From the NCBI GenBank assembly GCA_951406725.2, contig OX597836.1, forward strand, positions 40,176,001 to 40,240,000: 64,000 nt of DNA, read 5' to 3'. This document shows positions 4,960 to 48,049 of the stretch, piece after piece. The notes under the pieces were generated by a model. It was not told the DNA's origin. It saw only the letters and a list, made by a program, of their open reading frames with translations, and searched no databases. Every line of letters begins with the position of its first letter. Position 1 is the first letter of the stretch. This DNA comes from Octopus vulgaris. Lineage: Eukaryota. The position numbers and the translations under genes are program-made.

Positions 4960-5717
4960 TGTAAAACGTGACCTGGACGTTATTGTCGACAGCGATTTGC
5001 GTTGGACAAAAGACGTCGCTAAAATTGCCAAGTGGGCTGAGGGTCTCTTGGCATCACTCACCAAGTCTTTTGTGAGCCGCTCTCCGGCTATTTATCTGCG
5101 GCTTTATATAGCTATGGTACGATCTCACCTGGAATTTGCATCACCGGTCTGGAAACCCTGTCTTGCCTAGGATATTAATCGTCTGGAAGCTGTTCAGCGA
5201 CGTGCAACCAAGAGAATACCCTCCATCAGGCATTTGCCATATTCTGAATGCCTTATTTCCCTGGGCATGGATACATTGAAACTCCGACGTCTGGCAGCTG
5301 ATTTGGAAGACACCCATACAATTATTAACCATCTTACAAACAATAACTCTGAGCATCTTTTCAAACTCCACCTGTCTAACACCCGTGGATATGTTTACAA
5401 AGTCAGAAAACAGCACAGCTCCCATGACTTTCGGAAACATTTTTTCACGCTAAGAGTTGCTGAAGCATGGGAACAGACTGCCGGCATCAGTTGTTAGTTG
5501 TTGGAGCACTGCATCCTTCAAAACTTCCATGCTTCCTGAGATTCGCCAAAACTACACCTGATTTTCTCCCCTCCATACACACACAGGCATGTATCTGACT
5601 CATATACAGTTCACTTTCCAGACATTTGTACGTTACTGCATATAATTTATACGCACTTTTGACAAGTTGTGGTGCACCTGAGCACTGTATACAATAATTT
5701 CATTATTATTATTATTA
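4960..5717 (+). mobile_element. CR1-clade LINE 3' fragment (end of ORF2, 3'UTR, (ATT)n tail)
   Basis: Translates as RDLDVIVDSDLRW...LYIAMVRSHLEFASPVWKP..*DINRLEAVQRRATKRIP...LRRLAADL...TRG...RKHFFTLRVAEAW, typical of the CR1 RT C-terminus; internal stop. Confidence 0.9.
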
Positions 5718-6051
5718 TAACACCCGTGGACATGTTTACAAAGTCAGAAAACAGCACAGCTCCCATGACTTTCGGAAACATTTTTTCAGGCTAAGAGTTG
5801 CTGAAGCATGGGAACAAACTGCCGGCATCAGTTGTTAGTTGTTGGAGCACTGCATCCTTCAAAACTTCCATGCTTCCTGAGATTCGCCAACACTACACCT
5901 AATTTTCTTCCCTCCATACACACGCAAGCATGTATCTGACTCATACACTGTTCACTTTCCAGACATTTGTACATTACTGTATATACTTTATACGCACTTT
6001 TGACAAGTTGTGGTGCACCTGAGCACTGTATACAATAATTTCATTATTATT
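5718..6051 (+). mobile_element. Tandem second copy of the CR1 3' end
   Basis: Near-identical to 5377-5717. Confidence 0.92.
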
Positions 6052-6301
6052 TTTAAAATTAACGACACGAAATCAGATAAACTAACTACAACAATAGCTT
6101 CATTTCTTATTAAGAATGCTGAGAAGGCGGATGGTAAATCGAGACACTCTCATAAATCAAGACACTGCTATTTTTAAGCCAGTTTGATTAACTTTGCTTC
6201 TCTTTTGGTACGCAAATATTTAGCTTGGAGTCGAACTTTAGATAAACACATACGGGTTTACCTTTCAACTGAGAGGAGGCGGTTTCTTTTTGTATTATTG
6301 A

Positions 6302-7543: not shown

Positions 7544-7701
7544 AGTAGCAGCAGTTTATTGTTCCTAATTCTAAGGTTTTCGTCCTTCATTAAATGTTTT
7601 ACCATTTCCATCATCAAATGCAGGCGTGTCTTTGTGGTTGAGAAACTCGCTTTTCAACCCTGTGGCTGTAGGTTCAGTCCCAGTGCGTGGCATCTTCAGC
7701 C

Positions 7702-8049
7702 ACCTACACTCGCCTCCTTATGAGAGTTCAAAATATTTCGTGGAAGCGCCATCCAACCAAAATGCAAATATATGGGAAACTACCACCTGTTTCATCTCTT
7801 GTGAAAGGTAGGAGAGTCCAGTTTGCTGGACATTGTTGTAGAGCTGAAAACGAGGTAATTTCTACTCTCCTCCTCTGGAAGCCATCTACTCGCAATACCA
7901 GAGGGCGCACACTCTCCTACCCTGATGTAATCTCCAGGGATACAGGTATCCAGCAACAGGACCTCCGTAATGCTATGATGGACCGTGAAGTCTGGCGTAG
8001 CATGGTAAATTCCATTGTCTCGACCACGGTCGAACAATGATTATGATGA
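7702..8049 (+). mobile_element. RTE-clade LINE, 5'-truncated 3' end
   Basis: TYTRLLMRVQNISWKRHPT...RRVQFAGHCCR...LLLWKP...AMMDREVWR* followed by (TGA)n tail; second copy at 23789. Confidence 0.88.
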
Positions 8050-8550: not shown

Positions 8551-9150
8551 GGCGACGAGTTAATAGGATCATTAGCACGCCGAGCAAAATGCTTAGCGGT
8601 ATTTCATCCTGGCAGAAGCGTTAGCACGTCGGGCGAAATGCTTAACGGTATTTAAATTCCGCCGAGGTCGACTTTGCCTTTCATCCTTTCGGGGTCGATA
8701 AATTAAGTACCAGTTACGCACTGGGATCGATGTAATCGACTTAATCCGTTTGTCTGTCCTTGTTTGTCCTCTCTGTGTTTAGCCCCTTGTGGGAAGTAAA
8801 GAAATAGGTATTTCGCTTGCAGTTATGTTCTGAGTTCAAATTCCGCCGAGGTCGACTTTGCCTTTCATCCTTTCGGGGTCGATAAATTAAGTACCAGTTA
8901 CGCACTGGGGTCGATGTAATCGACTTAATACCTATGTCTGTCCTTGTTTGTCCCCTCTATGTTTAGCCCCTTGTGGGTAATAAAGAAATAGGTATTTCAT
9001 CAGTCATTATGTTCTGAGTTCAAATTCCGTCGAGGTCGACTTCGCCTTTCAATCTTTCGGCATTGATAAATTAAGTACCAGTGAAACACTGGGATCGATG
9101 TGATCGATCACCTAAAATTCCAGGCCCTATGCCAATAGTAGAAAAGATTA
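8551..9150 (+). mobile_element. SINE family A multimer/nested array
   Basis: Core aaattccg.cgaggtcgactt.gcctttca occurs three times (about 8655, 8838, 9022). Confidence 0.88.
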
Positions 9151-18521: not shown

Positions 18522-18563
<42 letters not shown>

Positions 18564-18684
18564 TCAAACATATAAGGGATGGCCATAATAGGACATCCGA
18601 CTCACAAGAAAGAGCAGTTAAACTCCAAACCACTAACAGTTGTAATTCTGAAATGGAAAGAGAAATAAAAACGTTTACCCTCTC

Positions 18685-18770
18685 CTTTCTGGACTATGCA
18701 TAGTTTCGGCAATCTTTTTGTAAATAAAATAAATTTATTTACGATTGGCGTTGCACTCTTCAGCAGAAAG
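18685..18770 (-). ncRNA. Type-I hammerhead ribozyme with canonical core, inside a TA-flanked Penelope-like unit (about 18563-18968)
   Basis: Minus strand: stem I CUUUCUG, CUGAAGA, long stem II opening G and closing C, GAAA, stem III CUA-UGCA-UAG, UC (triplet GUC), stem I CAGAAAG. Confidence 0.8.
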
Positions 18771-18992
18771 CCAAGGACTAACATATACCCACGAGGCAAT
18801 AATAGCCATGCCTCGAGTCTATATGCTATAACTTTTCAAAATCAACCACTCTCGCGCGGTTCTCAGCAGCAAATATAAACTGCTGATTTAATTTCAAAAT
18901 TAGCCAAAAATATCATTAATTAATAAATCTTAGGGTAGCAAAAAATTCTAGAAAAATTCTCCACTACATATATATATATATATATATACACG

Positions 18993-19104
<112 letters not shown>

Positions 19105-19106
19105 TA

Positions 19107-19640
19107 TTAGCCTTGTCTTTTAGTTACATTGTCTTTTACTTCCAGTACCCTTGCCCCTTATTTCTTATTTTTTCATTTTTTAACGTTTATTTTTTTCTCT
19201 CTATTTTATTTTCTCTCTATTTTTCTTTTTTTCTTTTTTCTTTTTTCTTTCTATCTTATTTTCCTTCCTATCTTACACAAGAGAATTGAATATAAACCCA
19301 TTCCAATCTATTTAACATTCACTCTATGTTGACTGGTGATACAGTATGGGCAGATTTTCCAAATCAAATGAATCTTTATACATTTATACAGTTAGGAAAT
19401 TTTACAAATACACTTTTTCAGAGAGGTATGATAAACCTATTATAATGGGTAACACTACATGTACTTTTCATATTTTTATAGTGTGATGTAACTCTTTGGA
19501 ATAACAATGTTTGCGGCTGAAGGGACCTTTAAACCATCTTTTATATCAATAATACACTGATGTAATAACGGATTGTTTATAAAGATTGAAACACGTGTAC
19601 CGCGATATCCTTTGTGTTCTGTTTTTAATTTTATTTGATA
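19107..19640 (+). mobile_element. TA-flanked Penelope-like terminal unit with degenerate hammerhead (19555-19605)
   Basis: ctgatgt...gaaacacgtgta with palindromic stem III; 19253-19437 duplicated at 24787-24971; (TA)n on both sides. Confidence 0.5.
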
Positions 19641-19697: not shown

Positions 19698-19701
<4 letters not shown>

Positions 19702-19878
19702 GACAGCTAAATCTACAGATTTTTTTCATTCTCTCTCTGTGTATTTTCTCTTATCTCTTTATGTTGAAGAGCGTCGGCTCGAAACGTGAAAGACTTTTTC
19801 ATTTTCCCAAGCGTCAAACTAATATACTTGCTTGTTGCTCATACAATTATCTTCGTCATTTGTTTTACTGTAAATTAT
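19698..19878 (+). mobile_element. Short hammerhead-motif element family H, copy 1 (decayed core)
   Basis: tctttatgttgaagagcgtcggctcgaaacgtgaaaga at about 19756-19793; TA flanks. Confidence 0.65.
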
Positions 19879-19884
19879 ATATAG

Positions 19885-46768: not shown

Positions 46769-47002
46769 TTTATCTAATTTTATATATATATATATTATAT
46801 TGTGTGAAACTTGATTTAGTATTTCTAAATTGAATTTTTTTCCTTGTAAGTTTGGATTTTATTCCCTCAAATAATAATTATATATATATAATTATTATTT
46901 GAGGGAATAAAATTCAAACTTCGGAAGGATATTGAAGAGCTGTGGGTCTCGGAAGCCCAGGCTATCACAGTATCTTGTCCTACATATGGATGGCAAATTT
47001 GG

Positions 47003-47127
47003 AGTCAGAAGGAAACTAATCCCCTTCCTTGAAGAAAATGACTTGCTGCCTGACACCCAACATGGTTTCCGACCAGGAAGAAGCTGCTTAACTCAGCTCC
47101 TACAACACTATGACTGGGTGCTGAAAC

Positions 47128-47130
<3 letters not shown>
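47003..47130 (+). mobile_element. CR1/L2-type LINE RT fragment
   Basis: RRKLIPFLEENDLLPDTQHGFRPGRSCLTQLLQHYD (QHGFRPGRSC motif). Confidence 0.85.
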
Positions 47131-47168
<38 letters not shown>

Positions 47169-48049
47169 CACACACATATATATGCGTGTGTGTGTGTGTG
47201 TACACACACATATATATGTAGAGAGAGCGACAGACAGACAATCGGACAAATAGACAGTCAGAAAGTGAAGTTTCTCTTTTAAAATTGGGCAAAATGGAAT
47301 TCAGTACATAGATCATACATATGTATACATAATACACTCAAACACACACACACACACACACATGATTCTGATATGGGTAACTTTAGTACAAAATGTCGGT
47401 TGTTAATTTGATACGAGAGACCTACATTTACCTGTCTGTGTATAGGTATATGTGCGTGTGTGTGTGTATACAGGTATGTGTGGGCTAGTGATTGTGCGCG
47501 AGTATATATATCCATGTGCATGACACAGTCAGCAAGTGAGACAGAAAGAGCGGCGCCGGGAGCATAGTGAAAGTGAAACTAAGACACAGAAGATTCTCAT
47601 GTCACCGTTTCACTGTCATTTTAAATATTCTCACCGAATCTCATCATTTATATTTCTTTCATATCTTCTTCCTGTTATTGGTTTTCTTTGACTGTCGTGT
47701 TTTTGCTTCTTTTTTGTTGTTGTTGTTGTTGCTGTTGTTGTTTTTCATATTATTGTCTTCTTTTTGTTTTGTTTTTTTGGGAGGGTGGAGTGGCGGGGTA
47801 GGGTGGGTGGAGAGATTTTTTCAACTTTACATATCCGCTTAGTTCTACTCTATTTTCCGTCACTTCTTTGACTCTCTCTGTCTCTGTCTCTGTTTGTCTG
47901 TCTGTCTCTCTCTCTCTTCTTTTCTCTCTCTCTAACACTCTCTGTCCCTGTCTTCCTCACTCACTCACTCCCTCCTCTCATTCTTTCTCTGTTTATTTCG
48001 AAGTATGTAAATATAAATGCATGCGTAAATATATATATATATTATATTA

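Follow-up and report, generated by a model that had tools for sequence, protein, structure and literature searches.

The hammerhead locus and its surroundings

The DNA analyzed here, from now on referred to as the window, is a 64-kb stretch of the Octopus vulgaris genome (C23, positions 40176001-40240000). It contains a hammerhead motif on the minus strand, which lies within a short repeat bordered by (TA)n on both sides. The features assigned to this locus are listed below.

18562-18967, minus strand: 5'-truncated copy of a putative retrozyme, about 0.9 monomer (positions 180-468, the cut site, then 1 to about 130; mapped on the cut-to-cut monomer of locus L051)
18544-18561, no strand: (TA)n target at the fixed 3' end of the element (found family-wide at 82 of 95 ends)
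18968-19107, no strand: (TA)n tract at the truncated 5' end (from sequence)
18685-18770, minus strand: type I hammerhead ribozyme motif (sequence, sub-threshold Rfam match, descriptor and covariance-model searches)
18764-18770, minus strand: 5' strand of stem I, CUUUCUG (descriptor search; pair 1.5 covaries between U-A and C-G)
18757-18763, minus strand: catalytic core C3-A9, CUGAAGA, with N7 at 18759 (inherited changes at N7 only)
18756 and 18708, minus strand: G10.1 paired with C11.1, base of stem II
18755, minus strand: inserted U between G10.1 and the rest of stem II, subfamily-specific (20 of 102 places)
18708-18756, minus strand: stem II, G.GCAA/UUGC.C with an internal loop and a 9-bp AU-rich hairpin (18742-18734/18728-18720)
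18745-18774, minus strand: possible pseudoknot, UUGGC (18774-18770) with GCCAA (18749-18745), conserved
18704-18707, minus strand: core strand GAAA (18707-18704)
18693-18704, minus strand: 12-nt palindrome ACUAUGCAUAGU, forming a 4-bp stem III with a UGCA loop; predicted dimer helix
18691-18692, minus strand: predicted cleavage site after GUC, C17 at 18692 (from sequence)
18685-18691, minus strand: 3' strand of stem I, CAGAAAG (descriptor search)

All core parts reported in an earlier note on this DNA were recovered in the sequence and by descriptor search, including the 7-bp stem I and the predicted cut between 18692 and 18691. Its description of stem II was accurate for the G-C closing pair and the long AU-rich extension but overlooked the unpaired U at 18755, and the unit of roughly 400 bp with (TA)n flanks that it had proposed could be delimited to 406 bp. 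The motif contains the CUGANGA, GAAA and UH elements and the open stem I required of type I hammerheads.

A relaxed type I descriptor (stem I of at least 4 bp) returned this motif as its single match on both strands of the 64 kb, and a covariance model matched the window at this hammerhead only, with the next-best hit at E=0.11. A short-stem pattern search missed the motif and returned two chance matches. Rfam gave no match at gathering score. A hammerhead search of the kind suggested in the earlier note did identify Hammerhead_1 (RF00163) as the best ribozyme match, over the full model length (18686-18769, minus strand), but at 20.1 bits (E=0.2) against a cut-off of 34, a low score which is probably due to the long stem II insert. 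Because the Rfam score is sub-threshold, the evidence against a chance motif comes from the family of copies described below.

Several other repeats are found in the window. At 19699-19880 (plus strand) the end of another repeat lies between TA tracts and carries a decayed minimal hammerhead with a GAGC/GCUC stem II, a GAAACGU palindrome and a degenerate left core; similar intact motifs occur elsewhere in the genome (e.g. L268). Positions 8654-9107 hold 2.5 copies of a 184-bp tandem unit belonging to a common short interspersed repeat, which we take to be SINE-like, and 5377-6055 is a 341-bp tandem duplication with 95% identity. Short frames at 7672-8040 and 46911-47282 resemble fragments of LINE ORFs, RTE-like and CR1-like, respectively.

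A dispersed family of short non-coding repeats

The 400-bp unit has at least 82 matches at 88-95% identity in the 2.8-Gb genome, with 40 of 2489 candidates scored. An exact 23-mer spanning stem III is present 151 times, and at least 215 motifs match a two-half core pattern, each with a control count of 0. Natural head-to-tail dimers define a monomer of 465-470 nt, with cut-to-cut lengths of about 455-470 nt overall. Tandems of this kind, the multi-copy arrangement expected of non-LTR retrozymes, are present at L051, L102, L128 and L144 and, in a sister family, at L297. The window copy itself is a single 406-bp unit with one ribozyme and no tandem repeat of the monomer. Copies reach about 2.5 units and are mostly dispersed insertions of 0.3-1.6 units; no long arrays were seen, with about 3 units at most. 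The repeat is tandem-permuted, low in GC (32-36%) and non-coding, its longest stop-free stretch in a 1.5-unit copy being 50 codons, and carries one type I hammerhead per unit. Folded as circles, five of five natural monomers were more stable than their shuffles (z -5.4, -8.3, -4.0, -1.8 and -2.0).

Contigs from four runs that we assume to be RNA carry family sequence, in a form from which circles, strand and ends cannot be read; these sequences differ from the window copy at many sites and are uninformative on it. Short-stem relatives sharing the palindrome were discarded as deletion derivatives (3 matches) or unrelated families with no PLE ORF nearby. A more diverged family of hammerhead repeats with the palindrome ACACUGCAGUGU was also observed (L248, L249, L256-L262, L265, L267, L276), spaced by roughly 240 bp in some tandems and with no PLE ORF within 1.5 kb.

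Loose ends in public contigs led to sister family B, which has the same layout as the window's family A, a monomer of about 490 nt and an identity to family A of 70-75%, or about 68-84% when taken segment by segment. It is represented by L212 and L277-L306, including a trimer at L297, and by at least 142 exact 26-mer matches. At positions 10.1-11.1 family B has A.A, C.A or U-A instead of G-C, which means that stem II geometry is loose. Judged by sequence, the window hammerhead is thus a real hammerhead sequence in a truncated copy of a family of non-coding repeats of 460-490 bases.

Probable selection on the catalytic core and covariation of the stems

Copies were collected at 160 loci, corresponding to 125 places, of which the 102 covering the ribozyme entered the alignment with a single copy apiece; changes were then placed on a tree built with FastTree. 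The 14 core columns show 25 private and 0 inherited changes, compared with 495 private and 150 inherited changes in 250 columns outside (Fisher p=0.0025), at similar private rates of 1.8 changes per core column and 2.0 outside the ribozyme. As a core pattern had served to choose some of the loci, a second test was confined to the 64 places identified through DNA similarity (core, 16 private and 0 inherited; outside, 354 and 105; p=0.029). N7, the free position of the hammerhead core, has 5 inherited changes.

The covariation among genomic copies that the earlier note had asked for is present in the stems. Compensatory changes were found in stem I (U-A to C-G), in stem II (G-C to A-U, independently in two clades) and in the AU hairpin extension (A-U to G-C). 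Across 63 sequences, 97% of cells pair and 33 cells carry double changes (reached in 0 of 500 shuffles), cell-based measures that are inflated by relatedness; counted by pair, 3 show double changes, a number reached by 294 of 500 shuffles and therefore not above them. An alignment of the two families (14 A and 13 B rows) adds further covarying pairs in stem I and in stem III, the latter between families A and B only. Although four of its letters have changed, the 12-nt palindrome self-pairs at 12 of 12 positions in 25 of the 27 rows of this alignment.

It is very hard to maintain that the motif is a chance look-alike or a neutral relic with no ribozyme role, as the Rfam score under the cut-off and the small predicted share of the active fold (see below) might suggest, since the core is free of inherited changes while N7 takes them and compensatory changes between families occur in all three stems, which largely refutes this reading. 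The spared core, the variable N7, the covarying stems and the palindrome retained across families make it likely that cleavage was under selection while the family spread.

The idea that such hammerheads act as dimers through a palindromic loop III, also raised in the earlier note, gains support from this conserved palindrome. It is predicted to form a duplex of -15.9 kcal/mol and no hairpin alone. A self-complementary loop is needed only in a dimer, which agrees with the dimer model put forward for PLE and amphibian hammerheads (PMC6765202, PMC7229834). A putative pseudoknot would join the bases 5' of stem I to the internal loop of stem II. It is paired in 93% of cells, its two apparent double changes come from single rows each, and one pair is broken in two subfamilies; we treat it as a possible lead only.

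An extra base in stem II and the activity of the window copy

Stem II of the window copy is discontinuous below G10.1-C11.1, with U 18755 bulged before GCAA/UUGC. This U is absent from most relatives, and parsimony on a tree without support test gives it two inherited gains and one loss. The predicted cost of reaching the active fold has a median of 5.9 kcal/mol in rows with the U (22 rows) versus 2.8 kcal/mol in those without (88 rows), the rows being non-independent. In the window copy the U creates a rival helix, GUGCA/UGCAU, with loop III, which is the predicted minimum-energy fold. The predicted active share is 0.0001; it is low even without the U (median 0.011), nearest-neighbor folding disregarding tertiary contacts. 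The window stretch folds better than 200 of 200 shuffles (z -3.1), its best fold not being the hammerhead, and in the predicted dimer the 12-bp helix III is formed with the base of stem II open.

The earlier note considered this ribozyme probably still competent. We find this doubtful for the window copy, where the U is predicted to favor a misfold and a single ribozyme is present; the claim is weakened further by the loss of about 50 nt of the monomer and by an identity of at most 95.8% to any sampled copy. The alternative, that the ribozyme is fully active and the bulged U tolerated, has points in its favor: all 14 core letters are intact, as in 80 of 102 places; the presence of the U at 20 of 102 places, with its two inherited gains, means that templates with the U have been amplified; a mismatched stem II base is tolerated in the sister family; and the window copy can form the 5-bp pseudoknot, PMC3088659 describing a natural hammerhead that is fast with a stem II of one pair plus a pseudoknot. 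Set against these are the cost of about 3 kcal/mol towards the active fold with the resulting minute active share, the open stem II base in the predicted dimer, and a lone ribozyme in what is only a candidate transcript; moreover, eight of nine predicted retrozyme dimers stayed uncleaved, one being active, in the experiments of 10.64898/2026.07.22.740005. Full activity thus appears rather unlikely, and even appreciable ribozyme activity is questionable to about the same degree. The extra base is predicted to weaken self-cutting. As an insertion, the window copy is probably a dead end, its activity being reduced.

Insertion scars of the Penelope type

Among 95 outer 3' ends at 64 pattern-found places, 53 lie at about 130-142 nt after the cut, 35 at about 228 nt and 7 elsewhere, leaving a tail of about 86-98 nt between the two main ends. 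Inverted insertions at these places have one end of each kind in 24 of 31 cases. (TA)4 accompanies 82 of the 95 ends versus 155 of 1400 control windows, a contrast somewhat inflated by the overlap of the 130-142 end with a TA-like stretch of the element itself. The family thus combines a fixed 3' end and an optional tail with 5' truncation or inversion and a microsatellite target; truncation, partial tandems, a 5' copy in inverted orientation and a one-sided tail are the hallmarks given for PLEs in 10.1101/2021.04.23.441226 and PMC3846280. Full copies read through the cut site, and among the best 30 matches to a natural dimer 15 have their start on the upstream side of the first cut. With no hard stop visible there, we abandoned the view that 5' ends terminate at the upstream cut.

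We consider it likely that the family is a non-autonomous retrozyme that spreads, copied from circles, by means of the RT and GIY-YIG endonuclease of a PLE, an inferred helper which is probably of the Neptune type; the repeat family would then likely be a parasite of Penelope-type elements. The ribozyme would cut multimeric transcripts, probably in the form of a double hammerhead held together by the 12-nt palindrome, and the monomers would likely be ligated to circles. A nick in (TA)n would then prime the PLE RT at an AU-rich spot about 130 or about 228 nt downstream of the cut, and the enzyme would copy around the circle for 0.3-2.5 turns. A circle read for more than one turn is the simplest account because the core is selected and yet full copies read through the cut site.

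The strongest competing account keeps the element and the PLE helper and dispenses with the circle: the RT would use linear multimers left uncleaved, or else an antisense transcript, as its template, and the role of the ribozyme would be limited to freeing or defining a 5' end. Uncleaved oligomers are proposed as insertion template, and PLE hammerheads described as slow, in PMC6765202, and a possible antisense template is argued for in PMC3846280. The absence of a hard stop of 5' ends at the upstream cut, and of any long source array among the copies seen, makes this account less plausible in our view, though far from negligible. More speculative, and a little less probable again, is an extended version of the circle model: a retrozyme lineage without sequence kinship to its helper, in which a Neptune RT would roll round the circle from two fixed internal priming sites, with a dimeric hammerhead stabilized by a previously undescribed pseudoknot into the internal loop of the elongated stem II. 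The recurrent U would serve in it as an attenuating switch, protecting the circles from being cut.

Search for an ORF-bearing partner

The earlier note had left the choice between a PLE terminal repeat and a retrozyme. This can be narrowed to a non-coding, tandem-permuted retrozyme with PLE scars; the search for a linked PLE RT/GIY-YIG ORF, which it also proposed, yielded no ORF-bearing partner of the repeat. By eye, no PLE ORF was recognized among the window's 101 ORFs of at least 120 aa, nearly all of which are microsatellite frames. In the genome, with 150 of 6136 GIY-YIG candidates scored, GIY-YIG ORFs are numerous, and several are intact 781-aa ORFs that combine RT, a CxxxxCxxC linker and GIY-YIG. 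Such a linker points to the Neptune or Nematis clades according to 10.1101/2021.04.23.441226, and we read these ORFs as Neptune-type on the basis of the linker rather than a tree. These PLEs also end in (TA)n and have two 3' ends with an optional tail of about 40 nt. No homology of the monomer to terminal repeats was detected in 46 GIY-YIG loci; the sole match of the monomer among them, at L191, is a neighboring insertion.

It is improbable that an autonomous PLE yet to be found has this repeat as its pseudo-LTR, with the copies being solo or truncated ends. All insertion scars are typical of PLE ends and only a fraction of the GIY-YIG candidates was covered, which would fit such an origin. 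However, head-to-tail monomers abut directly without an ORF at many loci, the 5' flanks of 51 single-orientation copies share no common abutting extension among the matches listed, and tblastn matches to PLE proteins near copies are separate neighboring fragments. The lone same-strand pair, 2.4 kb apart on C15 and at first a candidate pLTR-ORF-pLTR arrangement (L061, G000:C15:73944500-73954400), is a local 2.36-kb tandem duplication carrying the element. An RT plus GIY-YIG ORF between pLTRs, the definition of an autonomous PLE, was not found for the repeat, and the family is no autonomous PLE. The preferred reading thus remains a non-autonomous element with a PLE helper.

Two PLE families were also noticed. 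Loci L192-L200 (e.g. G000:C16:20834500-20841500) contain many near-identical intact 781-aa RT-GIY-YIG ORFs, suggesting a PLE family that is young and probably active; a motif shaped like a hammerhead lies at its 3' end and combines the non-canonical left core UUGAUAA with an ACAUGU palindrome. A second Neptune-type family (L201, L203, L206, L188) has a minimal hammerhead whose basal stem II position is U.U or C.A. At L201 its last bases ahead of (TA)n are TTTATTAAT, resembling the retrozyme's 228 end, and this family is a weak helper candidate.

Comparison with known elements

By its sequence features the family can be placed with the metazoan non-LTR retrozymes, cleavage and circular RNA being predicted. 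Descriptions of these elements (Cervera and de la Pena 2020, PMC7229834) report repeats of 350-390 bp in Mytilus and of 330/350 bp in axolotl. Shared with them are the type I hammerhead, the short low-GC non-coding tandem-permuted repeat and the self-paired monomer, and, with axolotl HHR_Amex2, a palindromic loop III and a loose stem II base. In contrast, the monomer of 455-490 nt reaches the top of the 150-450 bp range given there or exceeds it, most copies are dispersed insertions with no more than about 3 units seen, stem II is extended by a long AU hairpin and contains an internal loop, and the circles are inferred. The family would therefore be a further member of the non-LTR retrozymes with an unusual stem II architecture and clear insertion evidence. 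Relative to RF00163, Hammerhead_1 remains the best match over its full length, but below threshold.

EN+ PLEs of the Neptune clade, as characterized in 10.1101/2021.04.23.441226 and PMC3846280, resemble the family in 5' truncation, partial tandems, an inverted 5' copy, the optional 3' tail on one end, the microsatellite target and a hammerhead near the 3' end. Unlike them, the family lacks an RT/GIY-YIG ORF, has a full-size rather than minimal hammerhead and a tail of about 86-98 nt versus 30-40 bp reported for PLEs, and shares no DNA homology with those PLE ends of the genome that were compared. A retrozyme-PLE link has already been proposed, vertebrate retrozymes being viewed as PLE derivatives on the basis of co-occurrence and pLTR homology in Li et al. 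2026 (10.64898/2026.07.22.740005). Both studies point to a non-autonomous element using PLE enzymes; the link drawn here differs in coming from insertion structure in an invertebrate-type genome, without pLTR homology. Literature searches listed no description of the family, and repeat libraries, Repbase/Dfam or supplements may carry it under another name; the main text of a 2026 repeat paper on Octopus vulgaris (PMC13282606) has 0 occurrences of 'ribozyme' or 'retrozyme'.

Implications

The role of the hammerhead in PLEs has been called unclear (10.1101/2021.04.23.441226), and the movement of animal retrozymes is described as still open (10.64898/2026.07.22.740005). The family provides two handles. 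The test of private versus inherited changes indicates a catalytic core maintained over successive rounds of spread, and a non-coding element bears tail and inversion scars of the PLE type. Natural variants with or without the bulged U, with a mismatched stem II base or with altered palindromes are suited to cheap cleavage assays. The single window copy is unlikely to matter to the host. If the proposed reading is true, the family would provide genomic evidence, independent of pLTR homology, that retrozymes are moved by PLE machinery, with a ribozyme core under selection during transposition.
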